Made by a program: the position numbers and the translations under genes. Under the pieces are notes generated by a model. That model was given only the letters and a program-made list of their open reading frames with translations. It did no database searches and was not told the DNA's origin. A DNA stretch of 64,000 nt from the IMG/VR virus record IMGVR_UViG_3300028591_000076, positions 32,001 through 96,000 of that record; one strand, given 5' to 3'. Positions within the stretch are counted from its first letter, which is position 1. Each line of letters begins with the position of its first letter. Positions 4,064 through 60,841 of the stretch are shown here, piece by piece. The DNA comes from a virus. Its lineage: Duplodnaviria; Caudoviricetes.

Positions 4064-4360
4064 TTATAAAAAATACTCGCTAGCTATATCAGGCGCATCT
4101 TCAAACCAGAATGGTATTATTTGTTGGTTAGTATCTACTAGGTCTATATAAAAAATTTTATTTTCTTTAGCAGCTCTATTCTCAATCTCTTTTCTTAATT
4201 CTAACGAATATTCGCCGACAGTATAATATCCATCAATTTTTGTAGGATATTTATGTTCATCTATAAGCTTTAATACCTGGTCCGGACTGCCAACATAATA
4301 TAGACTAGCAAGTAATTGCTGTGACATTATGCTATTTTTTAAAGTTATACTATTATTCAT
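4064..4360 (-). CDS. Small hypothetical protein, C-terminal tag DIASEYFL
   Basis: ORF in minus-strand cluster. Confidence 0.7.
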   Translation of the reverse strand: MNNSITLKNSIMSQQLLASLYYVGSPDQVLKLIDEHKYPTKIDGYYTVGEYSLELRKEIENRAAKENKIFYIDLVDTNQQIIPFWFEDAPDIASEYFL

Positions 4361-4397
4361 CTTCTAAATTCCTTTATATATGAACTCATACATTTCC

Positions 4398-4730
4398 TTA
4401 TAAAAAATAATTGTTAATTTGATCCATACTATCTTTATAAGAAAGTATTTTATGCAAAATATCTTCTACATATTCTTCTTCTTTAGGATTAAAAGAGTAA
4501 TTATGCAGGTTATTTTTACTAATAACGCTTATAATAATATGGTCCGCTTGAATAAGTTTTGTTTTACCTATCAAAGACCACTGTTCATATATAGAATGTA
4601 CGATATGTTTATAAACTAAGTATTGTTCTACACCGATGTAAACAGTTTCGTCTAGATTGTCCTTAAAAAAGCTATAAATAAGACTATCATTTTTATTTAT
4701 TAACTCTTCTATATTATTGTTTTTATTCAT
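4398..4730 (-). CDS. Small hypothetical protein, C-terminal tag QINNYFL; paralog of 4740-5042
   Basis: LIYSFFKDNLDETVYIG aligns with CLYDFLKAHAGEQVNVD. Confidence 0.7.
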   Translation of the reverse strand: MNKNNNIEELINKNDSLIYSFFKDNLDETVYIGVEQYLVYKHIVHSIYEQWSLIGKTKLIQADHIIISVISKNNLHNYSFNPKEEEYVEDILHKILSYKDSMDQINNYFL

Positions 4731-4739
4731 ATATAAACC

Positions 4740-5042
4740 TTAAGAATAATAATTATTAATATACCTTTCTTCATATATACTTCTAACCATTTTAGCTAGG
4801 TCAGCTTTTAAAAACTTATCCCATACTTCTACATCATCATCAATAAGAGCAAATTTATTTAATTTTATGTAATATACTAATAATATTCCATATTTAACAT
4901 TTGCAAGCTCATAAGTATCAGCTAACGTAAATTTTGCGTCTGAAATAAAATAAAATCTACCATCTACATTAACTTGTTCCCCAGCATGCGCTTTAAGAAA
5001 ATCATATAAACATCTATTAGTTTTCATCATTTCAGGAGTCAT
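4740..5042 (-). CDS. Small hypothetical protein, C-terminal tag YINNYYS
   Basis: ORF; paralog of 4398-4730. Confidence 0.7.
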   Translation of the reverse strand: MTPEMMKTNRCLYDFLKAHAGEQVNVDGRFYFISDAKFTLADTYELANVKYGILLVYYIKLNKFALIDDDVEVWDKFLKADLAKMVRSIYEERYINNYYS

Positions 5043-5113
5043 TTTATAATTTTCTAGTTATGAGTCTACTTTTGTATTTTCTCTCTTAAAAAAACTCATA
5101 AGTTTATCCTTAA

Positions 5114-5201
5114 AAATGTGAATTTTTTGAAATTGAAGTTATATTAATTAATGTATAGTAAGAAGGAATATAGCTTTTGGCTTGCGTAGCGCCAATTAAT
5201 A
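5114..5201 (+). repeat. Dispersed non-coding repeat, copy 1 (copy 2 at 61213-61299)
   Basis: Shared blocks aaatgtgaatttttt, tgaagttatattaattaatgtatagtaagaag and ggcttgcgtagcgccaattaata. Confidence 0.9.
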
Positions 5202-5459
5202 ATTATAATATTTTTCTATATTTGTATCATTTGTTTCGTTTATTATAAATTCGTATACAACAACACCAGAAATTGTTGTATTTAAATAATTTATTTTATA
5301 TTTTATATTATGGTCATCTAAAAAGCTTCTTATTAAAATTGCTGGAATACCATTATATCCATAATTTGCTATTAAAGATGTAAATTTATTATTAAATGCG
5401 TCTTTTAATTGAGGAAATTGCTCTAGTAAAGTTTTTTCATTAGCAGTAATATCAGCCAT
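5196..5459 (-). CDS. Small hypothetical protein, C-terminal tag NIEKYYNY; paralog of 5452-5763
   Basis: FPQLKDAFN..LDDHNIKYKI aligns with YPDLQKALN..LDKKKLNYKL. Confidence 0.7.
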   Translation of the reverse strand: MADITANEKTLLEQFPQLKDAFNNKFTSLIANYGYNGIPAILIRSFLDDHNIKYKINYLNTTISGVVVYEFIINETNDTNIEKYYNY

Positions 5460-5763
5460 AATAATAATTCTCTAACTTATCCATATTTATAAAAATTCTG
5501 TAGGACTGTATAATACCGCATGTTACTTTTTCAGCAGATAATTTATAATTTAATTTTTTCTTATCCAGTAATTCTAATATTTTTTCTTTTTGATTTGGTG
5601 CAGGTGAACCAATCATATATTCATTAAACTCAATAGGAATTACAAAAGATACATATTCACCATTTAGCGCTTTTTGTAAATCTGGATATAAGCTAATAAT
5701 ACCATTATCAGTATATCGAATATATCCATTAGAGTATTGAACGGTTAAGGGACTTTCTTCCAT
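5452..5763 (-). CDS. Small hypothetical protein, C-terminal tag KLENYYYG
   Basis: ORF; TTACATATT 8 nt upstream of the ATG; no SD. Confidence 0.7.
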   Translation of the reverse strand: MEESPLTVQYSNGYIRYTDNGIISLYPDLQKALNGEYVSFVIPIEFNEYMIGSPAPNQKEKILELLDKKKLNYKLSAEKVTCGIIQSYRIFINMDKLENYYYG

Positions 5764-5771
5764 ATGTATAT

Positions 5772-5780
5772 AATATGTAA
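5772..5780 (-). promoter_or_regulatory. TTACATATT promoter-like motif (class A), leaderless arrangement
   Basis: 8 nt before the ATG at 5763. Confidence 0.6.
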
Positions 5781-5850
5781 ATACTATTTATTTTAGTATA
5801 TAAAAGGCAATTAAGAGTTTTTACTAAATAGTATAGGAGAATTTATATTT

Positions 5851-7122
5851 ATGTTTAATGAGTCAATAATATCAGATAAAGAATATAATAAAAACTTAAA
5901 AGCTAACTTAGCACAGTCCTTAAAGGATGAGTTATATATTTTCGAAGATGAATTTAAAGATTATAAGTTAGAAGTAGAAAATCCGAAAAAGCTTGATAAA
6001 GGATTTGATGCAAAATTAAATATTTATAATAAGAAAAATGAGTTAGTAGGTTATATTGCATATTATGAAACTCACTACTTAAATATTTGCGCTTATACGG
6101 CAGATAATGATATGGTAGCACATGAAATTGGCAACTGGGGTGACCAAAGAAATATTGCAAAACTTATTAGAATTTTAATAAATCCGGATGTTACAAAAGC
6201 TATTGTTACATATGAAGCAAATATAAATTCATTAAAAGAAAATATTGATTTAGAAAAAAAGCCAGAAGCTGCATTAGAACAAGTATTTATTGGTACCGAA
6301 AAAGTTTCATCACATGATGAAGAAGATACAAAGTTAAAGGACTATTGTGATAAACTTTTACTAACAGCTGACGAAAGAGAAAAGGTTATTGATTACTTAA
6401 ATAATCGTTTTCCAAATGAATCAAAAAATGGAAATGAGTTTGCAAATGGATGTATAACTCGTAAAAAAAATATAGATGACGCTATTAAGTCTTTAAGCCT
6501 ATCCGCATTTGCTCTACAAAGAATTGAGTCTTATAAAGATGCAGAAAAAGGTAAGCAATATATTGTTCTTTTTATAAAAAATGCTCTCTTAAAAGATGAC
6601 TATCATGATCAACATCCCGCTTATAAATTAAATACCAAAGCTGAAGACCGAACTAATCCAGAATTAGATAATGCAGCTACTATTGATAGACTTCATGCTC
6701 TTATTTTTAAGAATAGGGAAAATGCGCAAAATTATTTGGATAATCATGAAGAATTTAAGAATGAAGGTTTTAAGGTAGCTAAAGTTGATATTGGCGGCTA
6801 TGAATTATGGAGCTGTCAAGATTTAGTAGATTATGAGAGCTTAAAAGAAAATATATATCTTGGTAGACAAGATAGCCTGGTATTAAAAGAAATACCTAAT
6901 AGCGTAAGACCTAAGTTCTTAAAGAAAAACGGTAAATGTTCAAATATTATATATGCTGATAAAAAAGATTATCAAAATACCTCAGATAAAAACAATATTG
7001 ATTACGAAAAAGGGTGGATATTAAAAAGAAATCCAGAACCAGAAAAACTACACAATAAATTTGCAAAGGATGAAAAGAAAGGCGTTTGGTACGGTATAGC
7101 GCCAGGTGATATTGGAGAATAA
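5851..7122 (+). CDS. Hypothetical protein, possibly virion-packaged
   Basis: 423 aa; AGGAG RBS; ACTAAAT at 5823; two SLKENI sites. Confidence 0.75.
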   Translation: MFNESIISDKEYNKNLKANLAQSLKDELYIFEDEFKDYKLEVENPKKLDKGFDAKLNIYNKKNELVGYIAYYETHYLNICAYTADNDMVAHEIGNWGDQRNIAKLIRILINPDVTKAIVTYEANINSLKENIDLEKKPEAALEQVFIGTEKVSSHDEEDTKLKDYCDKLLLTADEREKVIDYLNNRFPNESKNGNEFANGCITRKKNIDDAIKSLSLSAFALQRIESYKDAEKGKQYIVLFIKNALLKDDYHDQHPAYKLNTKAEDRTNPELDNAATIDRLHALIFKNRENAQNYLDNHEEFKNEGFKVAKVDIGGYELWSCQDLVDYESLKENIYLGRQDSLVLKEIPNSVRPKFLKKNGKCSNIIYADKKDYQNTSDKNNIDYEKGWILKRNPEPEKLHNKFAKDEKKGVWYGIAPGDIGE

Positions 7123-7129
7123 TATTAAA

Positions 7130-7151
7130 AAGGCTAGTATTAACTAGCCTT
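7130..7151. terminator. Bidirectional intrinsic terminator
   Basis: aaggctagt/actagcctt hairpin between convergent genes. Confidence 0.75.
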
Positions 7152-7154
7152 ATT

Positions 7155-7895
7155 TTATTTATAGTAAACTGCTACTTGGCACTTTCTATAAAGAGTTGCA
7201 CCATTTTCTTTCCAAAGTTTATTATTAATAGCACTTCCCCAAGTATCTTCTTTATTCATAGGATATAATTTCTTATAATCACAATATGTGCTATCTGGAA
7301 TAATATTTAATAACGAAAGTCCTTCATGACATGCTAAAACATCATGTAAACGTTTGTCACTATTAAATTTATACTCTTCTTGTAATTCTTTAAAAAATTT
7401 AGAAGACCATAATCCTTTAATAGTATTTTTTTCATCATGACATAAATGTTTACCAACTAAAATAATTTCACTTAATTTATTTTCTGGCATAGATAAAACT
7501 TTTTTAGTTGACTCTATGTCCATATTAAAGTTGTAAGTTCTAACAAACTCTTTATATTTAAACTTTGGAAGTTGCTCTTCAGCTACTATGATATTATTTC
7601 CTACAAAACCGCCATTCATAACTAAAGTATCTAATGTATTTCCAGCTTCTAAGAACTCAGCAACTTTTGTAAGCGCACCACCACAAAATACTATTTCAGT
7701 GCCTAATTGAATTTCTGGAAACTTAGCTACGCCTTTAAGAATAAATTTATTTAATCTCTGTTTTCCTTCTTCTGATATAGGTTCAGGATCACAAACAATA
7801 TAAGATAATGCGTCATATTTGAGAAGGTATTCTATTGCAATTATATCATCAATATCTTGGTCTAGGTCTGCTATATAAGCTACTTTAGTTTTCAT
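7155..7895 (-). CDS. Nucleoside hydrolase (IU-NH)-like protein
   Basis: N-terminal DLDQDIDD (DxDxxxDD), VMNGG, YNFNMD and LHDVLA motifs. Confidence 0.7.
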   Translation of the reverse strand: MKTKVAYIADLDQDIDDIIAIEYLLKYDALSYIVCDPEPISEEGKQRLNKFILKGVAKFPEIQLGTEIVFCGGALTKVAEFLEAGNTLDTLVMNGGFVGNNIIVAEEQLPKFKYKEFVRTYNFNMDIESTKKVLSMPENKLSEIILVGKHLCHDEKNTIKGLWSSKFFKELQEEYKFNSDKRLHDVLACHEGLSLLNIIPDSTYCDYKKLYPMNKEDTWGSAINNKLWKENGATLYRKCQVAVYYK

Positions 7896-7959
7896 ATTTA
7901 TAATATGTAAATTAATATATTATGGGCGCTATTATTATATATGGGAGTCATATTATTTT

Positions 7960-8652
7960 ATGTCATATTTAACACATAAAGCGGATTTTTTAGATTTTTA
8001 TGAAATGTCTAATAATAAAAAAGAGTTTATAAAAAATTTGGATTTATATGTAGATAATATTAAAGTTGTAGTTAATAATGAAGTTGACTTAATACCATAT
8101 TATCCATTTCTTATATCTTCTTCTAGTACTACCCCATCAAAAGTTGTAGTAAACTTAACAAAATGTTCATATATCGATACGCTAGAACTAGATATAATAT
8201 CATTAATGATATATCTTTGTGTAAAACAAGCTAAAAAACATAAAAATGATAAATCAAAAATTTTAGTAGATGAAGATTTTGTTAGTCAGCTTCATACTTA
8301 CCCAGAATCTATATTTATTTTAGATATTATATTAGAAAATAAACTTACAAATAAAATTCCGCTCTTTAATAGAGATGCAGCTAAATTTCATAGATATTGT
8401 AATAATTGGCTAATACCAGAATATTTTAGTAATATAAGGTCTTATGCAGCAAATAATTTAAGAATAAAATGGCTAGAATTAGCAAAGGATAATAATTATA
8501 TAGTTTCATTATATGATGCTGATAAGAACGAATTCATAAGGTATAATGAAGATGGAATATATTCAAAAATAATAAATGATGCAGTTTTAAAAATTTATTT
8601 TTATATTAATTTTCTTAAAAAGAAAAATTCATTAAAAACATTTTCAATTTAA
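7960..8652 (+). CDS. Hypothetical protein
   Basis: 230 aa ORF with GGGAG RBS. Confidence 0.7.
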   Translation: MSYLTHKADFLDFYEMSNNKKEFIKNLDLYVDNIKVVVNNEVDLIPYYPFLISSSSTTPSKVVVNLTKCSYIDTLELDIISLMIYLCVKQAKKHKNDKSKILVDEDFVSQLHTYPESIFILDIILENKLTNKIPLFNRDAAKFHRYCNNWLIPEYFSNIRSYAANNLRIKWLELAKDNNYIVSLYDADKNEFIRYNEDGIYSKIINDAVLKIYFYINFLKKKNSLKTFSI

Positions 8653-8655
8653 AAT

Positions 8656-8681
8656 AAAAGCTGCCTATTTGGCAGCTTTTT
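8656..8681. terminator. Bidirectional intrinsic terminator
   Basis: aaaagctgcc tattt ggcagctttt; near-identical hairpin at 20029-20055. Confidence 0.8.
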
Positions 8682-8688
8682 ATATTTA

Positions 8689-8916
8689 CTAAGCGAACAA
8701 TTCCTCATATATATCAAATTCAGTTTCAACTAAATTTGAAGAGTCTATTTCTGATAATTGTTCAGTATCATTATTAAACTCATTATAAGACATATCATCA
8801 AAAATATCATCAAAATAATAATTTGATGAGTTATCATCCGACTCTTCTACTTCCGTAGGACCTACAATATCTAAACTTTCCAAGTCTAATTCGTCGTATA
8901 TCTGGTCGTCGCTCAA
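8689..8916 (-). CDS. Extremely acidic small protein
   Basis: 26 D/E in 75 aa and no K, R or H; TTG start after AGAGG. Confidence 0.6.
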   Translation of the reverse strand: MSDDQIYDELDLESLDIVGPTEVEESDDNSSNYYFDDIFDDMSYNEFNNDTEQLSEIDSSNLVETEFDIYEELFA

Positions 8917-8978
8917 AATAAACCTCTTTATTTTATATTAGCCTTTACTTAATTAGGCTATATTCTTAAAAGGCATTA

Positions 8979-9842
8979 TTAGCAAATAGCAACTGGCTTA
9001 TTTAAGAAATGCGCATATTTTCTATTAGGGTTATCTACAGATTTCCAGTATTTTAGCATATAATTAAATGATACTTCAATATCGTTACCAGATTGATTAC
9101 CATCATATTTATTTGTAGACTCTATTATTTTTCCCCATGGATCATCTACTATAAGATTAGTAATAACTTTAGATAGTCCAGCAGAAGTATTATCCTCACT
9201 ATTTATCCATTTTATTAAATCATCTTCAGATGTAGCTTCAAAACCAACAATAGTAATAATATGCCCTTTTAATCCGCCCCATTGTACAGAAGTTGGAATG
9301 GCAATTCTATTTTCATATAGCTGTTTAACAATATCTTTCATTGTAGCACTAGTAGTAAATGTATCAGCTTTAGAACAGCCCATATATTCATTAAAATAAT
9401 GCGCTAGTACCTCATGTAACTCTAAAGGAGTATATGCATTTGGATCACCTTCATACCAGTTTTTCCATAATTGTGGCATTTTTTGCTTAAACCAGTTATT
9501 TTCTTTATTACATTCTGTAATAGTATAATCTGCTAAGGCATCTGGCTCTCTTTCATATGCAGACTTAGGGAAAATCCAGCCAGAATATAGCGCAGCCATT
9601 CCTAAGCTATGAACATTACAAACACAAGTCCAGTTAATTGTATTAGTACCGTATTGTCCTTTCTGTTCATGCACATATTTTGACTTTCTTTGACTATAAT
9701 TATCCTTGCCTTCTGATACGTTTAATCTAAACATTATTTTCTTCTCCTCTATACTAGTACTGCTTATAGTACTTTCTGTATTGGTAATATACTTTTTTCT
9801 TAAAATCTTAAAAATTTTTAGAATTATATCTAGTAGCTTCAT
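8979..9842 (-). CDS. Peptidase C39-like (papain-fold) protein, candidate endolysin
   Basis: YSQR..CNVHS..GHIITIVG..VDDPWG give a Cys/His/Asp triad pattern. Confidence 0.7.
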   Translation of the reverse strand: MKLLDIILKIFKILRKKYITNTESTISSTSIEEKKIMFRLNVSEGKDNYSQRKSKYVHEQKGQYGTNTINWTCVCNVHSLGMAALYSGWIFPKSAYEREPDALADYTITECNKENNWFKQKMPQLWKNWYEGDPNAYTPLELHEVLAHYFNEYMGCSKADTFTTSATMKDIVKQLYENRIAIPTSVQWGGLKGHIITIVGFEATSEDDLIKWINSEDNTSAGLSKVITNLIVDDPWGKIIESTNKYDGNQSGNDIEVSFNYMLKYWKSVDNPNRKYAHFLNKPVAIC

Positions 9843-9895
9843 CTATTTAATTTAGTAATACTGACATTTTATCAAATTAAATTACATATTTTAAT

Positions 9896-10252
9896 ATGAC
9901 TAAATTGGAAGAATATGATTTATATGGCTTATGTACAAGCTTAAATGAAACATTTCTAAAAAAAGACGGAGTAGGATTAGGTTTTTATTTTTTAATGAAT
10001 AGTCCATATTTTATAGATAATAGATGCTTAAGAAGTTATCCACAAACAAGTATACCTAAAGACAATAAATATCATCGTACTAGCCAAGCACTTATCCAAA
10101 CGTGCATTGGGCATATTAAAAATAGTAAATGTATTTTTAAAAAAATGCTTAAAAAAAATTTTAATATAGACGATAAACTTTTTGAAAGCTTAAAATGCCA
10201 TATAGATAATTATATTACTAACTTAAGCACTTATGAAAAATATTTTCTATAA
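9896..10252 (+). CDS. Small hypothetical protein, C-terminal tag YEKYFL
   Basis: TTACATATT at 9882-9890, 5 nt before the ATG. Confidence 0.7.
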   Translation: MTKLEEYDLYGLCTSLNETFLKKDGVGLGFYFLMNSPYFIDNRCLRSYPQTSIPKDNKYHRTSQALIQTCIGHIKNSKCIFKKMLKKNFNIDDKLFESLKCHIDNYITNLSTYEKYFL

Positions 10253-13594: not shown

Positions 13595-13599
13595 ATCTA

Positions 13600-22887: not shown

Positions 22888-23151
22888 TTATATAATCTTT
22901 TTCATATATAACTTATAGCCGCTATAATTTCTATTCACTAAGTCTAACGCTTCTTCATATGAATAATGAATAGCACCATCAATGCCATTCGCGTCTTCTT
23001 CTACATTATAAACTTTGGTAGGACACCAATCTGGATGTACAGAATTATGCGTAAAAATAAATCTATTATATCCTAGTTCATCTGGCTTATCTGTTTCTGC
23101 AATAATAATATATTTAGAATTATCCATAATAAATTTCCTCAATATTGGCAT
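22888..23151 (-). CDS. Hypothetical protein
   Basis: ORF; true start is probably the internal Met (MDNSK). Confidence 0.6.
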   Translation of the reverse strand: MPILRKFIMDNSKYIIIAETDKPDELGYNRFIFTHNSVHPDWCPTKVYNVEEDANGIDGAIHYSYEEALDLVNRNYSGYKLYMKKII

Positions 23152-23527
23152 TATTATATAAATGTTCTAAAAATTTAATAGTATGTTCTTCATCTACTAA
23201 TGTATAATATTTATTTGTTTCAAAGTTTATATTACTATTATTGTTACTTAATTCACAAACTAAAAACTGTCCCATAGGATCAGAGTCTAGCATTTCCTTA
23301 TCGGCATATTTTCTAAAAATAAAAAATATAGAGGTATTTGACATATTTAACTTAGCATTATATATAATTTGATAGGGCCCAATGTTAAAATAGTTATCAA
23401 TACCGTCCTTTGATATGCTAATTAAATATTCTAAGTAATTTCTATAAATTTCTTTATTAGATAATATATTATTTTTAATTTTTTGAAATAAATATTCATT
23501 AGCGGCAGACTCTACTTGCGAAAACAT
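23120..23527 (-). CDS. Small hypothetical protein, KFL paralog family, C-terminal tag IEEIYYG
   Basis: GQFLVCEL..FETNKY..IKFLEHLYN aligns with 23639-24037. Confidence 0.75.
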   Translation of the reverse strand: MFSQVESAANEYLFQKIKNNILSNKEIYRNYLEYLISISKDGIDNYFNIGPYQIIYNAKLNMSNTSIFFIFRKYADKEMLDSDPMGQFLVCELSNNNSNINFETNKYYTLVDEEHTIKFLEHLYNNANIEEIYYG

Positions 23528-23638: not shown

Positions 23639-24037
23639 TTAAAAATATTCTTGTAATATTGAGTTTTTATATTGCTTTAAGTTATATAAATCATCCAAAA
23701 ATTTTAGTATTAGTCTTTCTTCACTCTCTGAAATATAGCGGTTACCCTCAAAATCTACTTTGATATTATTTAACTCAAACCATAAAAACTGTCCAAATAC
23801 TTCTTCATTATCTCTATTAAGAGGACCAAAAGCAAAAAAAGTAAAGGTTTTGGTAATAGAATTATAATTCCACTTTATTTCAAATTCATTAAAAAATAAA
23901 GATTTACAATCATCACCTATACAGTCTATTCCAATTGCTCTATATAATATTGCTGAATAAGCTTTTTCTCTAGAAGTTATTTTTTTATAGATTTCTTTCG
24001 CTAACTGCTCATTTTCCATTATAGTATGCGTAAACAT
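23639..24037 (-). CDS. Small hypothetical protein, KFL paralog family, C-terminal tag ILQEYF
   Basis: GQFLWFEL..FEGNRY..LKFLDDLYN. Confidence 0.75.
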   Translation of the reverse strand: MFTHTIMENEQLAKEIYKKITSREKAYSAILYRAIGIDCIGDDCKSLFFNEFEIKWNYNSITKTFTFFAFGPLNRDNEEVFGQFLWFELNNIKVDFEGNRYISESEERLILKFLDDLYNLKQYKNSILQEYF

Positions 24038-24421: not shown

Positions 24422-24769
24422 TTATTCTCCATAATAATCGTCTACTTTATTTTCAAACTTAATATAACTTAAGAATTTAGACAAGAGTCTATCTTCTCTT
24501 TCTGTTTCTATATCAGAAAAAAAGCCAGATGCTAAATTATAACTTAAAAAAGTTTGCATTCCAAAGTTTACTAAAACTTTATCAGCCTGTCTATAATCAG
24601 GATGTACATACATAAGAATACTAAAAGGACCAAGCTTTTTCTCATAAAATGCTTGAAAAGAACCCTCATATAAAAGATTTATAATTTTAGCATTCTTAAA
24701 ATCTAGCTTAGAAATATAAACTTCTATTAAGTCTCGATCTTCGAATGGCATAAAAAAACCTGTACCCAT
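24422..24769 (-). CDS. Small hypothetical protein, KFL family, C-terminal tag KVDDYYGE
   Basis: EDRLLSKFLSY near the C-terminus. Confidence 0.7.
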   Translation of the reverse strand: MGTGFFMPFEDRDLIEVYISKLDFKNAKIINLLYEGSFQAFYEKKLGPFSILMYVHPDYRQADKVLVNFGMQTFLSYNLASGFFSDIETEREDRLLSKFLSYIKFENKVDDYYGE

Positions 24770-24773: not shown

Positions 24774-25181
24774 TTAAAAATAATTACTAGCGATACTTAT
24801 AGAATGCATTATCGCATTTTTATCTCTATAAAATATAACTGTAAATTTTTTCTTAAATACCTTTATAAAAGTACATTCCATATTATTAGACTTCTTAAAA
24901 ATACTAACTTGAGAAAGATAGCCCTCATTTAATAATCTTCCAATACTACAATCTTTATAATATTTTGCATAGCGCTCATAATTTAAAAATGTAGTAACTT
25001 TATATTTATCATCTAAGGGTACAGAGTATTTTGTTAGGCCATATCCATCATCAAATATTTTTTCTGTACTCATTTCATTATCATTAAAAGTATTATCAAT
25101 CTTAAAATCTGATAAAGTTAAAGACTCTAAAAACTCTGCAATTTGATTTATTTCATTTATGTCTTCTATGCTATTAAACAT
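24774..25181 (-). CDS. Small hypothetical protein, C-terminal tag SIASNYF
   Basis: ORF in operon. Confidence 0.7.
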   Translation of the reverse strand: MFNSIEDINEINQIAEFLESLTLSDFKIDNTFNDNEMSTEKIFDDGYGLTKYSVPLDDKYKVTTFLNYERYAKYYKDCSIGRLLNEGYLSQVSIFKKSNNMECTFIKVFKKKFTVIFYRDKNAIMHSISIASNYF

Positions 25182-25187: not shown

Positions 25188-25589
25188 TTATTCGTTAAGA
25201 CAAATATAATATTTACTATCTTCGCCTTGTATTATTTGTAAATTATGACCATTTTTACAAGTAAAGCCCCATATAGCTTCTACTTTGGAATTATTAGTAT
25301 CTTCCCAAGCGCATTTTGTTTCTACATCAATATCAGTCACTACATTTTCATATGTATCTACTTTTTGCGCTGTAACTTTAATGCATTGTGGCACATCATC
25401 TACGGTAAATCGCCATTTTATACCAGTTGATCTTTCCAAAGAAAATTTTAAATAGTATGTATAAAGGTCATCTATATCAAAAAGTGAAGCCTTATCAATA
25501 GTAGTAAAATTAAATTGACCACATAAATTTGATAAGTAACAATCATTATTATTACTATTTCCTTGTGCTAATAGCGTGTCCATACCCAT
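25188..25589 (-). CDS. Hypothetical protein
   Basis: ORF with GAGG RBS. Confidence 0.65.
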   Translation of the reverse strand: MGMDTLLAQGNSNNNDCYLSNLCGQFNFTTIDKASLFDIDDLYTYYLKFSLERSTGIKWRFTVDDVPQCIKVTAQKVDTYENVVTDIDVETKCAWEDTNNSKVEAIWGFTCKNGHNLQIIQGEDSKYYICLNE

Positions 25590-25594: not shown

Positions 25595-25954
25595 CTATTC
25601 ATAATATTCCATTTCTGAAAGATGCATATAAAATTGACTTAAGAACTTTAATACAAGCGTTTTATTAGGCCCAGAAATAAATGTGCATTCTTCTTTATCT
25701 GAGAATCTAGAAATTCCATAATAAATAACTTGTTCTTCATTATGGAATACTCTAAATTCATAAGTAAAGTTTTTGCTATAGCTATCTATAATACCTTTAA
25801 CCTTAAAACTACCAATATCAAATTCTAAATCTGAATTTTTTACTTTCTCTATGAAAAAATCAAAAACTTTATCTTCGCTTTTATTAAAAAATTCTTTTAT
25901 TTCTTCATAAGCACTCTTATCTATTAAGCAATTAATTTTTAATGGATATGCCAT
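25595..25954 (-). CDS. Small hypothetical protein, KFL family, C-terminal tag EMEYYE
   Basis: LVLKFLSQFY near the C-terminus. Confidence 0.7.
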   Translation of the reverse strand: MAYPLKINCLIDKSAYEEIKEFFNKSEDKVFDFFIEKVKNSDLEFDIGSFKVKGIIDSYSKNFTYEFRVFHNEEQVIYYGISRFSDKEECTFISGPNKTLVLKFLSQFYMHLSEMEYYE

Positions 25955-30493: not shown

Positions 30494-30844
30494 CTACCTA
30501 ATATAATAATTATATTTATAATCTAGATGATAATTATCACCAGATAAAGCAACATGTTTATCATAAATTTTTACTAAAAAACTTTTATCCCAGCCTAATA
30601 CCCTATCAAAAAATTCATTTTCGCCCTGTAAATCTTCCATTTGTATTAGAAAAAAATTTTCAATGCTATAGAGAAAAAAACCTAATAAGTCACTTTCCTT
30701 ATTATTAAAATCATTAAATAAAAATTCTGAAAATAGCTCTTTATACTTTTTATTATTTCGCTTACTAAAAATATAAATAAAAAAGCCATTAGTATCATCA
30801 TCTTTTTCTAAATTTACAATATAGCTAGACAGCTCAACAGTCAT
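30494..30844 (-). CDS. Small hypothetical protein, C-terminal YKYNYYIR
   Basis: Coupled ORF. Confidence 0.65.
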   Translation of the reverse strand: MTVELSSYIVNLEKDDDTNGFFIYIFSKRNNKKYKELFSEFLFNDFNNKESDLLGFFLYSIENFFLIQMEDLQGENEFFDRVLGWDKSFLVKIYDKHVALSGDNYHLDYKYNYYIR

Positions 30845-31113
30845 TAGTTGCTCCCATAATACATATTATATAAATTTATATCACTAGTTTCAGTTATTGT
30901 AATATCGGATATAACTATATCCTCTTCTGAAAGATGTAATTTATATACTAATAAAGTAAAGTCATAAACACCGATCGCTGTTTTAGCTGCGCCATGAGAT
31001 GCAAAAACTCTAGCATTTTGTAAATTTTCTACTAGGCATATTTCTGAGCCAGAGCCAGCTATATATTTATTACCTATTCTAACAACGCATTTTCTATCGT
31101 TTCTCTTTTTCAT
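30844..31113 (-). CDS. Small hypothetical protein, C-terminal LYNMYYGSN
   Basis: Coupled ORF. Confidence 0.65.
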   Translation of the reverse strand: MKKRNDRKCVVRIGNKYIAGSGSEICLVENLQNARVFASHGAAKTAIGVYDFTLLVYKLHLSEEDIVISDITITETSDINLYNMYYGSN

Positions 31114-46996: not shown

Positions 46997-47695
46997 ATGT
47001 CATCTTTAGTTCCACATGATATTAAGCTATTTACAAATTCATTATCATTAAATATGCGTGTTTTTCGTGAGCTCAAAAATTATTTATGTCCAAAAGGTCA
47101 TCAGCCTTATTATGGCCATATTATAAAATCTGAAATATTTTATGGTAAATCTTCATTACAAATTATAGAAATGCTATATAAGATTTATAAGTTATGCTGC
47201 ATTGGAAATGTACATAAAGCTCTTAATTTTTCAGAAAACACACGCCTATCTGTTGGTATAATTGTTGATAGAAAGAGTGACTTTGATAAGATAATAAATT
47301 CTATTATTGACTTAAGTAGCGCTTTAGGATATTTCTGTATTAATACGCCAACGAATAATACTGTTACACTAACTTTTAATGATAATGTAATTAGCCTTGA
47401 GCCAATTACCAGAGAAAGTGACCTAATAGGGAGTACATATATTGGAATTATGAGTTCTAATATTAGTTGGTCTCCAGCAAAAGTTCGATTAGTATTAAGA
47501 GCGCTTAATCGAATAGAGTCCAGATTAGGCCCATCTGAACATAAGTTTGCTTTAATAGAAATGCTCACTAGTGATTTAGATAAACATGAATACTTAAAAA
47601 GCATTATAGACTCGTTTGGTACTGATATTTATATTACTGTATCAAATGAATATAAACAGCTTACATTAGAAGAAATTGATAGCTATTTCGAATAG
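46997..47695 (+). CDS. Truncated, degenerate paralog of the terminase ATPase domain, C-terminal tag EIDSYFE
   Basis: PY..II..EIFYGKSSL..LY, DLIGSTYI and NRIESRLG align with TerL PY..IL..HIGWGKSAL..LY, DIIGSTII and SRIDSRMFG. Confidence 0.75.
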   Translation: MSSLVPHDIKLFTNSLSLNMRVFRELKNYLCPKGHQPYYGHIIKSEIFYGKSSLQIIEMLYKIYKLCCIGNVHKALNFSENTRLSVGIIVDRKSDFDKIINSIIDLSSALGYFCINTPTNNTVTLTFNDNVISLEPITRESDLIGSTYIGIMSSNISWSPAKVRLVLRALNRIESRLGPSEHKFALIEMLTSDLDKHEYLKSIIDSFGTDIYITVSNEYKQLTLEEIDSYFE

Positions 47696-51169: not shown

Positions 51170-51697
51170 TTAAAAATCATTATAATAATTATCTAAAATA
51201 TAATTTTCCCATTCGACCCGAATTCGCTTTTTTACTAGCTTAGACGCAAGCCTATTATCCTTATCATTTTTAATTTCCATAAAAAGCAAATTATCACTAA
51301 TACTATTTATAAAACCATCTTCAAGCTTATCGAAAATATTATACATTATACGTATAATTGGAAGTCTACGTTCTGAAAAAGAAGTTTGATACATGCATGG
51401 ACAAGAAATTAAATTGCCTTTAGAATAATAAGTACTATAGCTAAAATAATAATAACTACTAAAAGTAAATGGATATAACATCTCAATTAAGCTATATAAA
51501 CTATGTTCAGCTGATATTTCAAGAGTAGGTATATCTAAAACTTTTAAGTCTGATGTTAATACCCATGTTTCATTATCAACTGAGATATTACTAATAACAT
51601 CTTTTAGTATATCAAATATTGACTTCTTTTCTATACTAAAAGGCTTTTCATTTATTTCAGCTTTTTTAGATTTATAATTGTCTACTTTCTTTTCCAT
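51170..51697 (-). CDS. Hypothetical protein, C-terminal tag ILDNYYNDF
   Basis: 175 aa ORF. Confidence 0.65.
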   Translation of the reverse strand: MEKKVDNYKSKKAEINEKPFSIEKKSIFDILKDVISNISVDNETWVLTSDLKVLDIPTLEISAEHSLYSLIEMLYPFTFSSYYYFSYSTYYSKGNLISCPCMYQTSFSERRLPIIRIMYNIFDKLEDGFINSISDNLLFMEIKNDKDNRLASKLVKKRIRVEWENYILDNYYNDF

Positions 51698-54628: not shown

Positions 54629-54648
54629 TAGTTAAAAACCTAAAAATA

Positions 54649-54672: not shown

Positions 54673-54678
54673 ATTTAT

Positions 54679-54933
54679 TTATAAATCTGAAAAATATTCA
54701 GGCTTATTTTTTAATGTACATGTAGCTATTTTTTCAAGTGGTACCTTATATGTAATTTCAGCATTTGAAGACCCTATATAAAGACATTTATCAGCTTCGT
54801 CTATAAATAGTTCTCCATAAGATAAACTATCGTATTTGTCTAAAAAATTTGATATATCCCCTCTAGCTATTAAATTCTTATATCTTGAATACGTACTATT
54901 GCCTGTCATATTTTTAATCTCGGAAATAATCAT
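54679..54933 (-). CDS. Small protein with Mtd_N-like GEL motif, C-terminal KPEYFSDL
   Basis: LSYGELFIDEADKCLYIG. Confidence 0.6.
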   Translation of the reverse strand: MIISEIKNMTGNSTYSRYKNLIARGDISNFLDKYDSLSYGELFIDEADKCLYIGSSNAEITYKVPLEKIATCTLKNKPEYFSDL

Positions 54934-55441
54934 CTATTTCCTTTTGTAAAAGTGACTCCTTTTCTGTTAGCTCTAATTCTCTTTCTATATCGTCTATGCT
55001 TACTTTCCTAAAAGCATTCTGAATAAATATATCGCCATTAGCATCTTTATAAAGCATTATTTTTGTAGTCTTGTCAAAAATAAATGAGTCATTAGCATAA
55101 TTATCTAAAATATCTTTAGTAATTTTTTCTTCAGTATAAACTGAAGAAGGTATTTTATAATTATAACCAGAATAAGTATATACTGGCGCTGTCCAGCTTG
55201 ACTGATTATAAATCAAGTTACCATTAAGATTGATAGAGCTACCTGTATTTGGGGTAGACGTTACCGAAGTAGAAGAAGTTATAGTAGACGTAGCTGCTGA
55301 GCTGCTAATGCCATCTACCATTAAGCTATTAGCTGTTATGCTTCGCACATATTCATCAATTGATAAACTATTATCTTCCGCTGATATAGCGTAATTATCA
55401 TCTAATGTATAATTCTTTATTTTTTCTCTAATAGATGTCAT
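54914..55441 (-). CDS. Ser/Thr-rich hypothetical protein, C-terminal tag QKEIDDYFRD
   Basis: ORF; FIFDKTTKIMLYKD weakly resembles its neighbour. Confidence 0.65.
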   Translation of the reverse strand: MTSIREKIKNYTLDDNYAISAEDNSLSIDEYVRSITANSLMVDGISSSAATSTITSSTSVTSTPNTGSSINLNGNLIYNQSSWTAPVYTYSGYNYKIPSSVYTEEKITKDILDNYANDSFIFDKTTKIMLYKDANGDIFIQNAFRKVSIDDIERELELTEKESLLQKEIDDYFRD

Positions 55442-55523
55442 ATAATGATATTAGCAGATATTAAAAATTTTTAGTTCGCTAACTAATTTTTTAAAGATAT
55501 AAAGAGTATCTTTAAGGAATTAT

Positions 55524-55970
55524 ATGGAAATAAAAATTGATAAAGCTTTCTTCACTAAGCTTATAGTAGTAGTTATTTTATGTATGATATGTTTTTGTTT
55601 AGGCAGATTCTTAAGATTTTCTGATAAGTCTGGCAATGCACAGAACTTAGTAGATGGAATAACTATAAGTCAAGAAACCGCTAAAAAGATGGCACAAAAA
55701 TTGAATATTGGTGAAGCGGCATTAAAATCTGCGGATTTATATGAAAAGGCTGTTATAGAAAGTCTAGATACCCTTAGTGAGTCTAATGAAAAAGGCCTTG
55801 AATGTATGAATATGTTGAATGAGGCCTTTATCGCAAATAAAAATATAACAGAAAAATATAAGTCATTAAAAACTGACGTTATTGTAAATGAGCTTAAAAA
55901 AGCACAAGAGCAAGCACTTGTCTATGAAAAGCTATTTAATGACTATAAAGCATTAGAGGAAGAAAAATAA
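55524..55970 (+). CDS. Membrane-anchored coiled-coil protein
   Basis: N-terminal TM followed by a helical segment. Confidence 0.7.
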   Translation: MEIKIDKAFFTKLIVVVILCMICFCLGRFLRFSDKSGNAQNLVDGITISQETAKKMAQKLNIGEAALKSADLYEKAVIESLDTLSESNEKGLECMNMLNEAFIANKNITEKYKSLKTDVIVNELKKAQEQALVYEKLFNDYKALEEEK

Positions 55971-56720: not shown

Positions 56721-56728
56721 GATAAAAT

Positions 56729-57286
56729 ATGAACACAAAATTAGATAATAAAATAATAAATGATAGATGCTTATTAAAATACTTACCTATAAATCAAGTA
56801 TATAATATCGTAAATGATTATGAATATGATTTATGTTATGAGGCGCTTTTTGAAAAAGGGTCGGTAGACTTATATGAAAACTTAAGTGACTGGTTTGGAA
56901 TATTTATATATGACTCAAAAGGTGAAAAGCATCTAGTTGGCCTTTTATGTACTAATGATAACTATCATACTGAATTTAAGTTAGAAGATAAAAATCCAAT
57001 ACACTTATCAGAAATAGAAATTGAGCCAAAATTTAGAGGTGAAAACTTTACAAACTCTAATAAAATTCATGCTTTTTCTAAGGCTATGTCTACTTGGGAA
57101 AAAGGCGCTAAAAAAGCTGGATATAACTTATTAACTTTACAAGCGCTAGATGAAACAAAAATTCCATTATATGAGCATGTAGGATTTCATAAAGTAGATT
57201 ATACTATATATAAACCAATTATTAAAGAATATGGACATGAAAAGTTCTATAATGAAGAACATCCATTTATGATTAAGGAAATATAA
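56729..57286 (+). CDS. GNAT-family acetyltransferase
   Basis: IHLSEIEIEPKFRGEN..LTLQALD..PLYEHVGF. Confidence 0.7.
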   Translation: MNTKLDNKIINDRCLLKYLPINQVYNIVNDYEYDLCYEALFEKGSVDLYENLSDWFGIFIYDSKGEKHLVGLLCTNDNYHTEFKLEDKNPIHLSEIEIEPKFRGENFTNSNKIHAFSKAMSTWEKGAKKAGYNLLTLQALDETKIPLYEHVGFHKVDYTIYKPIIKEYGHEKFYNEEHPFMIKEI

Positions 57287-57287
57287 T

Positions 57288-57902
57288 ATGACTGATGAAG
57301 AAATTAAACAAATTGAAGCAGACTTAGATGAATTATACAATACTAAAAAACAATTATCCCCTCTTACAAGATATATGTATGAAAATAATTGTGAATATAT
57401 CGCTAGTGGTACTGCTAGGTCAGTATATAAATTAAATGATGATAAAGTATTAAAAATCGCAAAAAATAAAAAAGGTATTGCTCAAAATAACGTTGAAGCT
57501 GACTGGGCTTTAAGAAATTATGGTATAATAGCCGACTGGTATGATATATCTGATAATGGTATTTGGATTGAAAGTGAATTTTGTAAAAAAGCTAAAAAGT
57601 CCGACTTCTATGAACTTACTGGATTAAAATTTGATTGGTTTCAAGAAGCTGTAAGATATAATTATTTCTATTTACACCCTTGTCGTTACTTTGGTGTTTC
57701 TAAACCAGAAGGATACGATGAAGAAGTAGAAAAGGAAGACTCCTTCTTAGTAAGTATAGAGTCATATATGGCTGATTTTGATGTTCCATTTGGTGACCTA
57801 TGTAGAATATCTAGCTATGGCATAAATCATAATAATGAAATTGTGTTAGTAGATTACGGACTAAATAGGTCAGTGGAAGAAGAATTCTATAAAAGAAAAT
57901 AA
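57288..57902 (+). CDS. Protein kinase-like protein
   Basis: IASGTARSVY, VLKIAK, QNNVE, GDL..SYG and LVDYG. Confidence 0.75.
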   Translation: MTDEEIKQIEADLDELYNTKKQLSPLTRYMYENNCEYIASGTARSVYKLNDDKVLKIAKNKKGIAQNNVEADWALRNYGIIADWYDISDNGIWIESEFCKKAKKSDFYELTGLKFDWFQEAVRYNYFYLHPCRYFGVSKPEGYDEEVEKEDSFLVSIESYMADFDVPFGDLCRISSYGINHNNEIVLVDYGLNRSVEEEFYKRK

Positions 57903-58322
57903 CTATTTTTCAACTAAACTTTTTTCTAAATCGGCTCTCTCAGATTTTGTTAAATAACTAACAACGCCTGTTAAATCATTATTATACATGTATTCTAACA
58001 TTGCATTTTTTATAGAGTCTTGCCATCCTGAATATAAATAAGCTGGATAATTTTGCTTATCTATACAGGGTCTCGTTATAGTAAATATATCCTTATCTGC
58101 ATAAACGCCTCGATATGCAGATGCTACTTCATGAAAATTATAGCCTATCTTTATTTTATTTTTAGGATAAGACATTACTTCATCAGCTATTTCTACTAGT
58201 AATTCTTCACTTAAGCTAATAACTATTACCCGCTTATGTTTTGGAGAATAATAATCCTCAAAAAAGTTATATAATTCTGATAAAAATAGAGCGGGATGAA
58301 TATAATATTTATCTATTGCCAT
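57903..58322 (-). CDS. Hypothetical protein
   Basis: Coupled ORF. Confidence 0.6.
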   Translation of the reverse strand: MAIDKYYIHPALFLSELYNFFEDYYSPKHKRVIVISLSEELLVEIADEVMSYPKNKIKIGYNFHEVASAYRGVYADKDIFTITRPCIDKQNYPAYLYSGWQDSIKNAMLEYMYNNDLTGVVSYLTKSERADLEKSLVEK

Positions 58323-58810
58323 TATTTCTTAAAATAAGAGTAAGGATTTAGTATATCAATATCTTCAGATAAGGAAGCTGATTTCTGAATAGCATCTTTA
58401 ATAGAAAAGTTTGCATCTTGAGCAACTTGCATAAGTTGCTTTAACTTTTCTTGTTCAAGAATTTCTATATTTCCATGTTCATCTTCTTTAAGCTTTACAC
58501 CATTAACTTCAAATTCACCTATTGAGAGGTCTCCAACAAATACTGCTGCGTCCCAACCTTCACTATCCGGATTTATAGCAAATGGTACGTCTGAAGTAGA
58601 AAATTCATTATCACCAAGATATAAAGTAAGTACTAATCTTTTTCCTTTAGACTTATCTATCATCCCTGATACTGGACTTGACCCATCGTCTTTTTTTATA
58701 TAAAAAGACTCTGTTATAAATGCATTTTTTCCTAAATGTTCTTCTGATACTAAAACTAAACGTGACCACTCATCACGTCTACATATATCTAATGCTTCTT
58801 TATATGTCAT
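58322..58810 (-). CDS. Hypothetical protein (ends PYSYFKK)
   Basis: Coupled ORF. Confidence 0.65.
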   Translation of the reverse strand: MTYKEALDICRRDEWSRLVLVSEEHLGKNAFITESFYIKKDDGSSPVSGMIDKSKGKRLVLTLYLGDNEFSTSDVPFAINPDSEGWDAAVFVGDLSIGEFEVNGVKLKEDEHGNIEILEQEKLKQLMQVAQDANFSIKDAIQKSASLSEDIDILNPYSYFKK

Positions 58811-59413
58811 TTAATTTAACCCATATTTCTTTGTTAAAGAGTCTTTTGATGATTTCTTATATTTATTACGCTTAGCTATTATTTTAATCTTATTTATAAT
58901 TTTACCAAAAATAGTCTTTGCTGGCATATTCATTTCTTCAAGATCAAAAATATCTCTACTATAAATTTTAGGGTCAATATATCTACTCTTGTAGCCCTTA
59001 TCACACCACTCAAAAATCTTATTATCCAATTCTTTTCTATCTTTACGCATATCAGCTAGTGCCCTTTCAATTTCAGGCTGTAAAGCAGACTCTTCAAATT
59101 TAGTCATCTTAATTTTTCCAAAATCAATTGGAAGTTTCTCATGATTAAATGTCAAGTCTTTAAGATTTTCAATATCTTTTTTAAGAACTGGGTATGTATA
59201 TACTTTATTTGGCTTTCTAAGCATAAAATATGGATAAAGTGTTTTATCCTTTACATCCATGCTGCAAACATTATCTTTAACTTTTTTATTTATTTTATTT
59301 GATAGAATAATACATAAATTATTCATATCTAATTCTGGAGATGTAATAACTTCTGTTACTAAGTCCATATCCTTTATGGCATTATTAAAACTCTCATTTA
59401 TTTCTAATTGCAT
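58811..59413 (-). CDS. Hypothetical protein
   Basis: 200 aa ORF. Confidence 0.65.
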   Translation of the reverse strand: MQLEINESFNNAIKDMDLVTEVITSPELDMNNLCIILSNKINKKVKDNVCSMDVKDKTLYPYFMLRKPNKVYTYPVLKKDIENLKDLTFNHEKLPIDFGKIKMTKFEESALQPEIERALADMRKDRKELDNKIFEWCDKGYKSRYIDPKIYSRDIFDLEEMNMPAKTIFGKIINKIKIIAKRNKYKKSSKDSLTKKYGLN

Positions 59414-59473
59414 TCTATATTACCCCATAGTACATTCTATAGTAATATATTAGGATATTATTTAAAATATTAA

Positions 59474-59492
59474 AGGTCCCAAAAAGGGACCT
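59474..59492 (-). terminator. Probable terminator after clpP
   Basis: aggtccc aaaaa gggacct. Confidence 0.65.
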
Positions 59493-59520
59493 CTTATACT
59501 TTATTAAATTATATATTTTT

Positions 59521-60126
59521 TTACTTTCGCGCAGTCAAAATATGGTCTACAATACCATAATCAATTGCTTCCTGTGCACCCATAAAGTGATCACGTTCAC
59601 AATCTTTATAAATTTCTTCGTAAGTCTTACCAGTATCTGCTGCAAGATAATCATACAAGAACTTCTTGAGTCTGTTAATTTCCTCTGCAACAATGTTGAT
59701 ATCTGTTGCCTGACCCTGAGCGCCACCAGAAGGCTGGTGAATCATTACACGGCTTGATGGAAGAATATATCTCTTTCCTTTTGTTCCACCCGCAAGAAGT
59801 ACTGAGCCCATTGATGCAGCCTGACCCATACAAATTGTTTGAATGTCACATTTAACATACTTCATAGTATCATAAATAGCAAGACCAGCTGTTACAACGC
59901 CACCCGGTGAATTAATATACATCTTAATATCCTTTTCAGGATTTTCAGATTCAAGGAACAAAAGCTGTGCTACAATAGCATCAGCCATCTGGTCATTAAC
60001 CTCTCCATCAACAAAGATAATTCGGTCTTTGAGAAGTCTTGAATAAATATCGTAACTTCTTTCACCCGTACTTGTGGACTCAACTACATATGGTACCACA
60101 GATGCTCTTTCTCTCATATCTGACAT
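59521..60126 (-). CDS. clpP: ATP-dependent Clp protease proteolytic subunit
   Basis: [24 protein letters not shown] (Ser), MIHQP (His), ERD (Asp); TTACATATT at 60154. Confidence 0.95.
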
Positions 60127-60194
60127 TTAAGTCTCCTATAATTATTTATTAAAAATATGTAATTATCTTAGTCTATACGTAATAAATTAAAAAA

Positions 60195-60425
60195 TTACTT
60201 TATATCAGGATCACCAGTAAAATAATTATTTGCCTTATTATTAAAAGCGACAGTCTTAGCTAATTCTACTTCTAAGTCTGATACTCTTCGTGTAAGGTCC
60301 ATATTTATAGACTCTAAATAGTGTACTTTTTGATTTAATGTATATATAATATCTGACAAATCTCTTATACTTATATCATAAGAAGTTTTTTGATTTAAGT
60401 CTTCGTCACTTAAGTAATTATTCAT
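60195..60425 (-). CDS. Small coiled-coil protein, near-terminal ANNYF
   Basis: Heptad LNQKVHYLE..LTRRVSDLE. Confidence 0.6.
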   Translation of the reverse strand: MNNYLSDEDLNQKTSYDISIRDLSDIIYTLNQKVHYLESINMDLTRRVSDLEVELAKTVAFNNKANNYFTGDPDIK

Positions 60426-60427
60426 AT

Positions 60428-60841
60428 TTAATTAAAATATTTATCCTCTGGATTATTTGCTAAATCTGATTTATCAGAAATATTATTAAGTACCCAATTA
60501 TATTGTTCATTATATGAAGCAACGTAATCATCTCTTTCTAACTTTGGCTTTGTCTTAAATAATTTTAAGTATTCGCAAACTCGCTTTATCTTAAAAATTT
60601 CAAAGATATTATAACTCGCTTTTACATTAGCCGAATATCTATCATTTCCTAAATATAAAATATTATCTTCATTAAGCTTATGCGTATTTGTTAAAAGAGT
60701 AACGGCATCAGATATAATATTTTTATTATATCCTAATAATTTTGGTAATTGTGATGTATTATAAAATAGTTCTTTTATTGTTACATTCTTTTCTTTAAGA
60801 AAATTAAATATAGCAATATCGCGGTCTTGATTTTCTATCAT
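60428..60841 (-). CDS. Small hypothetical protein, C-terminal tag PEDKYFN
   Basis: ORF in operon. Confidence 0.65.
   Translation of the reverse strand: MIENQDRDIAIFNFLKEKNVTIKELFYNTSQLPKLLGYNKNIISDAVTLLTNTHKLNEDNILYLGNDRYSANVKASYNIFEIFKIKRVCEYLKLFKTKPKLERDDYVASYNEQYNWVLNNISDKSDLANNPEDKYFN

Follow-up and report, generated by a model that had tools for sequence, protein, structure and literature searches.

A selected C-terminal tyrosine-aromatic tag on small, mutually unrelated accessory proteins of a large phage

Short peptides at or near the end of a protein chain serve as docking elements in several described systems. In bacteriophage T4, gp43, gp33 and gp55 bind the sliding clamp through a hydrophobic-plus-acidic C-terminal peptide, which is carried on a divergent linker of variable length and is interchangeable among them (PMC2988020). 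The PIP box, Q-x-x-[ILM]-x-x-[FY]-[FY], is often located near the C-terminus and fits a hydrophobic pocket as a short helical turn (PMC6881253). The alpha-pockets of the human 20S proteasome favour the HbYX/Y-Phi end Y-[F/Y]-X-COOH, with ..SYYT as the optimised form (PMC12352868; bioRxiv 10.1101/2021.04.28.441858), and the ssrA tag and the C-terminal ClpX-binding peptide of SspB are terminal degron or adaptor tails of AAA+ proteases (PMC9963277, PMC10638403). The element treated here is a C-terminal tag built around the dipeptide Y-[YF], which is found on small proteins encoded within bases 32001-96000 of the 239,841-bp virus record IMGVR_UViG_3300028591_000076 (this whole 64,000-nucleotide stretch is called the window below) and was counted over the entire record. 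Literature searches turned up no phage for which a proteome-wide terminal tag has been described.

Enrichment, nature and conservation of the tag

The census was made on a greedy set of 288 non-overlapping open reading frames (ORFs) of at least 50 aa, which covers 94% of the record (29% G+C, completeness estimate 76%). Y-[YF] lies within the last eight residues of 55 of the 288 proteins, where internal windows predict 10.6 and composition-matched shuffles give 12.1 +/- 3.2 (z 13). By position, 22 proteins have the dipeptide starting at -3 and 19 have it starting at -4, with about 1.8 expected for each; for the two starts combined, 40 are counted against 3.5 +/- 1.9 (z 20), and the maximum among 500 shuffles is 9. 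The C-terminal enrichment over a composition-matched background that the initial annotation had proposed is thereby demonstrated. When all dipeptides in the last six residues were scanned without bias, YF came out 30 times against 3.9 (p 5e-17) and YY 20 times against 4.1, and in the unbiased residue and dipeptide scan Tyr at -3 and -4 stood out, with weaker signals from NY, EE and Glu at -6. The N-terminal control count was 8, and the rejected (non-coding) ORFs had Y-[YF] at -3/-4 in 12 of 486 cases, with no peak. Most of the excess falls on small proteins: 44 of the 119 proteins of up to 150 aa (37%) carry the dipeptide against 6.3 expected, and 11 of the 169 longer ones against 5.8.

The motif extends upstream of the dipeptide and is longer than first described. 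A residue of the [ILVM] set is present at Y-3 or Y-4 in 70% of the C-terminal copies and in 41% of the internal Y-[YF] pairs (p 1e-4), being split between the two positions, while Y-1 and Y-2 are polar in 78% against 41%. Y-6 is most often E, Y, L, D or N, without enrichment of Gln. Among 49 tails, the dipeptide is followed by one residue in 22, by two in 18, by three in five, by none in three and by four in one. This is a robust, selected C-terminal tag on some 45 small, mutually unrelated accessory proteins.

Selection acts on the protein and not on the DNA. The hexamer TAYTWY peaks in frame only, at -12 and -9 from the stop codon (19 and 22 occurrences where about 2.6 are expected; adjacent offsets have 0-3), and codon usage at the tag is normal, TAT making up 88% of the tag tyrosine codons against 89.5% genome-wide and TTT having a share of 90% against 83%. 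Around the tag, the third codon positions carry 0.02-0.05 bit of information and the first and second positions 0.4-0.6 bit. A DNA-level origin, which the initial annotation had raised as an alternative, fails on this evidence. A nucleic-acid or translation-termination signal that merely resembles a peptide motif, as the fixed distance of the motif from the stop codon might suggest, is already largely refuted: synonymous codon use is neutral and the flanking third positions are uninformative, the distance to the stop ranges from 0 to 3 codons and differs also among orthologs, the context 3' of the carriers is varied (gene starts, overlaps or terminators), and non-coding ORFs have no peak. Recent recombination at the 3' ends of genes was rejected as the means by which the tag spread, because nucleotide conservation is absent outside the two codons. 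Wrongly read C-termini through suppressor tRNAs or an altered genetic code were also rejected, with no tRNA gene found by ARAGORN in the 240-kb record and TAA as the stop codon of 33 of 49 carriers. The tRNA-free state is unusual for a phage of such size.

The tag is also conserved among relatives, counter to the lack of conservation that the initial annotation had named as a refutation. The distant relative, G001, has 258 kb, a terminase 73% identical and only 76 proteins in common with this phage; no further IMG/VR relatives were found beyond it and one 9.8-kb fragment, and closer relatives were reached via protein homologs on ENA and Logan contigs. Fourteen ortholog pairs below 70% identity (mean 42%) were compared, one of which was set aside as a frameshift-split gene. 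The aligned Y-[YF] is retained in 12 of the 13 valid pairs, some at 30-43% identity with altered trailing length, where an average rate of change would keep both residues in about one-fifth to one-quarter of pairs. Y-F and Y-Y swap between orthologs and the trailing length shifts from 0 to 3, genes private to the relatives are also tagged (one as Y-W), and untagged members of the arrays remain untagged in relatives. Among the 12 members of the family of the protein at 23120-23527, I129, E130, Y133 and Y134 are invariant and the final residue is G, E or R. In the family of the protein at 60428-60841 (A10), N-P-E-D-x-Y-[FY]-N is invariant, with YF and YY alternating, and the polar linker that precedes the tag is the most variable region, with indels. 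On the contig of one close relative (L029:9570-10000), the ortholog of the gene at 24422-24769 is found in two ORFs (an apparent frameshift), the downstream piece of which is still tagged.

In G001, the loose last-eight rule gives 16 against 12 and no overall enrichment, yet YF at -3/-4 is found eight times against 1.7 expected, a count reached in none of 500 shuffles. All eight of these tags read h-x-x-Y-F-[NDE], and two are directly downstream of Thg1, as here. The tag therefore predates the split from G001 and has expanded in the lineage of this phage.

The carriers and their genomic setting

The C-termini in the initial annotation proved real, all 20 being present where it had placed them. 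The protein at 58322-58810, which it had called weak, gained support from conservation; the one at 60195-60425 lacks the motif in a 43%-identical ortholog and is probably not a tag. The carriers and associated genes of the window are as follows (window coordinates).

4064-4360, minus strand: carrier of 98 aa, ..IASEYFL, first of a five-gene tagged array that is headed by TTACATATT at window position 5780
4398-4730, minus strand: carrier of 110 aa, ..INNYFL
4740-5042, minus strand: carrier of 100 aa, ..INNYYS
5196-5459, minus strand: carrier of 87 aa, ..IEKYYNY
5452-5763, minus strand: carrier of 103 aa, ..LENYYYG
7155-7895, minus strand: nucleoside hydrolase-like protein, ..VYYK, probably one of the roughly ten chance carriers
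9896-10252, plus strand: carrier of 118 aa, ..YEKYFL, followed by a terminator-like hairpin and no gene start
23120-23527, minus strand: carrier of 135 aa, ..IEEIYYG
23639-24037, minus strand: carrier of 132 aa, ..LQEYF, a distant paralog of the preceding protein
24422-24769, minus strand: carrier of 115 aa, ..VDDYYGE; homologs (30-34% identity) end ..NINKYFGE
24774-25181, minus strand: carrier of 135 aa, ..IASNYF; orthologs (36-39% identity) retain the tag as ..LDNYFRVN or ..LDNYFSIN, the trailing length going from 0 to 3
25188-25589, minus strand: chance carrier, ..KYYICLNE, which meets the last-eight rule; the motif is lost in orthologs
25595-25954, minus strand: carrier of 119 aa, ..EMEYYE, first gene of the post-Thg1 array, after Thg1
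30494-30844, minus strand: carrier of 116 aa, ..YNYYIR; tag retained in the close relatives L026 and L029 but not in G001
30844-31113, minus strand: carrier of 89 aa, ..NMYYGSN; orthologs end ..NNYYGE (49-51% identity) and ..GGYF (G001, 29%)
46997-47695, plus strand: carrier of 232 aa, ..IDSYFE
51170-51697, minus strand: carrier of 175 aa, ..LDNYYNDF
54679-54933, minus strand: carrier of 84 aa, ..PEYFSDL; the ortholog (42-51% identity) ends ..KEYFSED
54914-55441, minus strand: carrier of 175 aa, ..QKEIDDYFRD, PIP-like; the ortholog (38-43% identity) ends ..STVDEYFGK
58322-58810, minus strand: carrier of 162 aa, ..PYSYFKK, kept in orthologs at 78% and 95% identity
59521-60126, minus strand: ClpP (279 bits with Pfam, 333 bits with NCBIfam), with a TTACATATT site 36 nt upstream
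60195-60425, minus strand: rejected listing, ..ANNYFTGDPDIK, with the motif seven residues before the end and absent in the 43%-identical ortholog
60428-60841, minus strand: carrier of 137 aa, helical model, tail residues 120-137 with a predicted local distance difference test score (pLDDT) under 50

Carriers are mostly ORFans with no detectable homology to one another. Singletons number 47 of the 55 in BLAST at 1e-3 and 46 of the 55 in phmmer after the last 10 residues had been trimmed, hidden Markov models of five tandem arrays had no match outside their own array, and no Pfam or PHROG family was found for 48 of 54 carriers. The few enzymes that carry the dipeptide (a DHFR fusion, deoxyribonucleotidase, the nucleoside hydrolase and homing endonucleases) match the roughly ten chance carriers that are expected.

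Two carrier families were modelled with AlphaFold. The protein at 23120-23527 is predicted to be alpha/beta, with two helices, five strands and one helix (pLDDT 76, predicted template modelling score (pTM) 0.73), and the family of 60428-60841 to be all-helical (pLDDT 66). In both models the tag comes past the last core helix, on what is predicted to be an exposed tail with a pLDDT of 52 or below 50, and the tag itself is modelled as a short helical turn. The models are indicative of two families that differ in fold class and bear the tag on a low-confidence tail. A Foldseek search of a carrier model against the PDB returned nothing at E<=0.001 (best TM about 0.3), and a protein atlas search with the carrier at 54914-55441 gave sub-threshold matches only. 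The proposal that one tag is shared by mostly unrelated small proteins agrees with the singleton and family counts and with the two different modelled folds.

The upstream motif TTACATATT occurs 36 times, with about 27 of the occurrences lying 9-50 nt upstream of gene starts. A second motif, ACTAATT(W), is 15-18-fold enriched before gene starts, often stops some 5 nt short of the ATG without a Shine-Dalgarno sequence, and heads baseplate, giant, large and structural genes, for example upstream of window position 48491 and upstream of genome 113160-120410; it may be a late promoter that yields leaderless or near-leaderless mRNAs. A systematic T4-type late promoter (TATAAATA) was considered and rejected, as only 10 sites are present. 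When genes were assigned to a class by walking along the transcription unit to the nearest upstream motif, tagged genes fell 36 to 2 into the TTACATATT and ACTAATT classes and untagged genes 76 to 98 (Fisher p 1.2e-9). Two further proposals of the initial annotation hold up, namely that carriers lie downstream of TTACATATT (36 of the 38 class-assigned carriers) and that the tag is nearly absent from structural proteins. Given this class bias, the carriers are non-structural accessory genes, probably early or middle, and they sit in hypervariable accessory arrays. In two close relatives (L026:13342-20405 and L029:11760-20405), five to seven radical-SAM genes adjoin the post-Thg1 array, a cluster with no counterpart in this genome.

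The phage itself, an uncultured gut phage, is only distant kin of GenBank phages, the best matches to its terminase being only about 23% identical (megablast and tblastn). Its relatives stem from animal gut metagenomes, and the top matches of its DnaK are three gut or rumen Spirochaetales metagenome-assembled genomes, by a narrow margin. A protein identical to one carrier sits on a 351,527-bp metagenomic contig, from which it follows that the record is partial. A 312-kb contig has a 91%-identical carrier. The genes of the record include a PolA fragment, a DnaB-like helicase, RecA, Thg1, SIR2 and RNA ligase, and anaerobic ribonucleotide reductase, thymidylate synthase and flagellin are also encoded. 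The set of proteostasis genes is unusual, comprising DnaK (946 bits), GroEL, ClpP and two AAA ATPases. In addition, the HSP20 of a close relative (a weak Pfam match) has a 95%-identical counterpart in this phage. Those outside the window with a bearing on what follows are given in genome coordinates.

99842-100141, minus strand: protein of 99 aa that adjoins GroEL in both this phage and G001
100151-101833: GroEL, 73% identical in G001
141837-143717: DnaK
144934-145464: HSP20-like protein
148272-149543 (L005:12272-13540, plus strand): AAA ATPase of 423 aa, C-terminus ..K-T-I-G-F

A proposed common partner and the alternatives

The explanation preferred here, to which a probability of about 0.55 is given, is that [ILVM]-x(2,3)-Y-[YF(W)]-x(0,3)-COOH is a selected recognition peptide on flexible ends which docks one common partner. 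The hydrophobic residue and the two aromatics would together make up one side of a short helical turn with polar or acidic flanks, and this turn would plug into a hydrophobic pocket of a partner that accepts chain ends only; such an end-only pocket would explain why the motif is confined to about five residues from the C-terminus. Individual function would then come from the variable domain that each carrier has, and a shared address from the constant tail. The type of partner best suited to an end-restricted aromatic tail would be a ring-shaped proteostasis machine.

Several such machines are encoded. The ClpP at 59521-60126 is genuine by its family scores, and it is flanked by carriers in a conserved gene order. 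The 423-aa AAA ATPase belongs to the classic clade, with VAT, Rpt and Cdc48 as best PDB matches. All of 20 phage homologs share its C-terminal [IV]-G-F, followed by 0-2 further residues, and distant bacterial WHD+AAA homologs often have it too. The tripeptide is described as the docking element of Clp ATPases on ClpP (PMC8745299), and its presence at the end of the ATPase suggests a phage unfoldase-ClpP pair. The ATPase thus bears the ClpX loop tripeptide at the place where PAN and Rpt bear HbYX, and this may be a new mode of docking an unfoldase on ClpP. No peptidase is adjacent to the bacterial homologs, no Clp-type AAA_2 unfoldase is encoded in the record, and the GTDB genome collection holds no relative of the ATPase. 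A protein of about 4,300-4,450 aa without a Pfam family is directly upstream of the IGF-ended ATPase in distant phages (L031, L032, L038 and L039, positions 1-9924).

G001 lacks ClpP, the 423-aa ATPase and DnaK (Hsp70), all three of which the tag-rich lineage has, and nevertheless bears its eight tags; in distant phages with the IGF-ended ATPase (L031/L032) none of 14 small proteins is tagged in the 20 kb available. By this double dissociation, these proteins are weak candidates for the reader of the tag. A prediction of the complex between residues 1-175 of the ATPase (13-row alignment) and the carrier at 23120-23527 (12-row alignment), run without controls, scored 0.00, a value that counts neither for nor against an interaction. 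Since the tag is found on proteins of G001, with only 76 proteins in common, the reader is most likely, to go by gene content, one of these shared proteins or a host protein. GroEL and its 99-aa neighbour are among the shared candidates; the neighbour has a tag-like N-terminal D-P-D-Y-[FY], which is YF in one phage and YY in the other, and this element is a lead only. The neighbour was considered as a GroES and is not GroES-like.

A number of points weigh against docking on one common partner. The variable trailing length disfavours a pocket anchored on the carboxylate, and no reader was found, so that partner binding is something we infer. About 10 of the 55 carriers are due to chance, and not all of these can be separated from real ones. 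The two models were built from shallow alignments (15 and 7 rows) with modest confidence, and a low pLDDT in the tail is no proof of disorder. Lastly, at an estimated completeness of 76%, the absence of any gene from the record is provisional. A wider proposal, that huge phages use lineage-specific terminal address tags with a co-evolving reader to route dozens of fast-evolving accessory proteins, as exchangeable cargo or adaptors, to one hub, here with a tail that mimics Y-Phi/HbYX and plugs into a ring-shaped proteostasis machine, is tentative and less likely than not.

Among the alternatives, the tail might serve an AAA+ protease, either host Clp or Lon or the phage ClpP with the IGF-ended ATPase, as a terminal degron or as an adaptor handle, so that the carriers would be short-lived early proteins (a timer) or adaptors that deliver host proteins for degradation. 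The bona fide, carrier-flanked ClpP with its conserved gene order, the invariant [IV]-G-F end of a classic-clade ATPase, the presence of ClpP, ATPase and Hsp70 in the tag-rich lineage and their absence from tag-poor G001, and the fit of an exposed tail within five residues of the end to a pore-engaged degron all speak for this. It is nonetheless unlikely, as G001 keeps eight genuine tags without ClpP or ATPase, the small proteins seen in distant ATPase-bearing phages are untagged, no Clp-type AAA_2 unfoldase is encoded, the tail is dissimilar to LAA-type degrons, and ClpP belongs to the carriers' own promoter class, which leaves no obvious timing switch. An autonomous structural or self-association motif, in which the Tyr pair caps the last helix or zips oligomers without any reader, is harder still to credit. 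In its favour, the hydrophobic residues are spaced (i, i+3/4, i+4/5) as at the end of an amphipathic helix, the models place a short helical turn at the tag, and aromatics are common in this AT-rich proteome; the enrichment is, however, limited to Y-[YF] and does not extend to other hydrophobic pairs, and the same dipeptide is found on different predicted folds, past the folded core, after variable linkers with indels and in one gene class only.

Docking on a sliding clamp, through a PIP-box-like or T4 gp45-type tail, was the lead of the initial annotation, and it now seems very improbable. The PIP core spacing h-x-x-aromatic-aromatic is seen in about half of the tails, the carrier at 54914-55441 and its ortholog fit the full PIP consensus, and the interchangeable hydrophobic-acidic C-termini of T4 gp43, gp33 and gp55 on variable linkers offer a parallel (PMC2988020). 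Against it, no gp45, PCNA or beta-clamp family was matched at E<=1 in the 240-kb record (PF09116, PF02916, PF00712 and PF00705; a provisional absence at 76% estimated completeness), the replication genes are of the PolA and DnaB type, PIP position 1 shows no excess of Gln, and dozens of early ORFans on a replication clamp would have no precedent. A virion packaging or ejection signal, as a C-terminal analogue of the T4 capsid-targeting sequence or of encapsulin cargo peptides, is about equally hard to sustain. Large phages package many proteins, and the capsid proteins are common to both tag-bearing lineages, but only 2 of the 38 class-assigned carriers are in ACTAATT units, which hold the baseplate and giant structural genes; this bias of the carriers towards the other class, with 36, argues against a packaging signal, as does their position in hypervariable accessory arrays.

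Significance and comparison with described systems

No block of unknown function in virology is larger than that of the small, fast-evolving phage ORFans, and a handle shared by about 37% of the small proteins of one phage offers an experimental entry point to a putative hub. The tag tells genuine accessory effectors apart from other ORFs, and work in the host could make use of it as a portable tag. Should the hub prove to be a protease or chaperone, phages would organise host takeover through a degron or adaptor library, a principle that is known from eukaryotic viruses and of which no description was found for phages.

The T4 clamp-binding tails are alike in having a hydrophobic-acidic terminal epitope on a variable linker that is common to unrelated proteins. 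They differ in that three carriers of known function are involved there against about 45 ORFans here, and in being Leu/Phe-rich rather than Tyr-aromatic; in addition, a clamp gene was not found here. With the PIP box, the tag has in common the core of a hydrophobic residue, x-x and two aromatics, whereas the tag lacks a conserved Gln and may be spaced h-x-x or h-x-x-x, and a PCNA-type partner was not detected. The tag is neither a canonical PIP box nor an LAA-type degron. The degrons and adaptor tails of AAA+ proteases resemble it as exposed C-terminal peptides on a flexible tail that take diverse proteins to one machine, and a ClpP and an unfoldase-like ATPase are encoded here; the sequence is, however, unlike LAA-type degrons or the SspB tail, and the register is variable.

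HbYX/Y-Phi ends are end-restricted aromatic tails that dock between ring subunits, and the commonest register of the tag, Y-[YF]-X-COOH, is formally the same. They need a single trailing residue, with a free carboxylate in register; 22 of the 49 tails have one such residue, the other 27 have 0, 2, 3 or 4, and orthologs alter the register. No proteasome or HslV gene (PF00227) was matched in this phage (G000) or in G001, and the carriers are small and monomer-sized rather than ring activators. If the reading of the tag as an address code is true, it would parallel, in a virus of bacteria, the way in which eukaryotic viruses use motifs to hijack degradation machinery.

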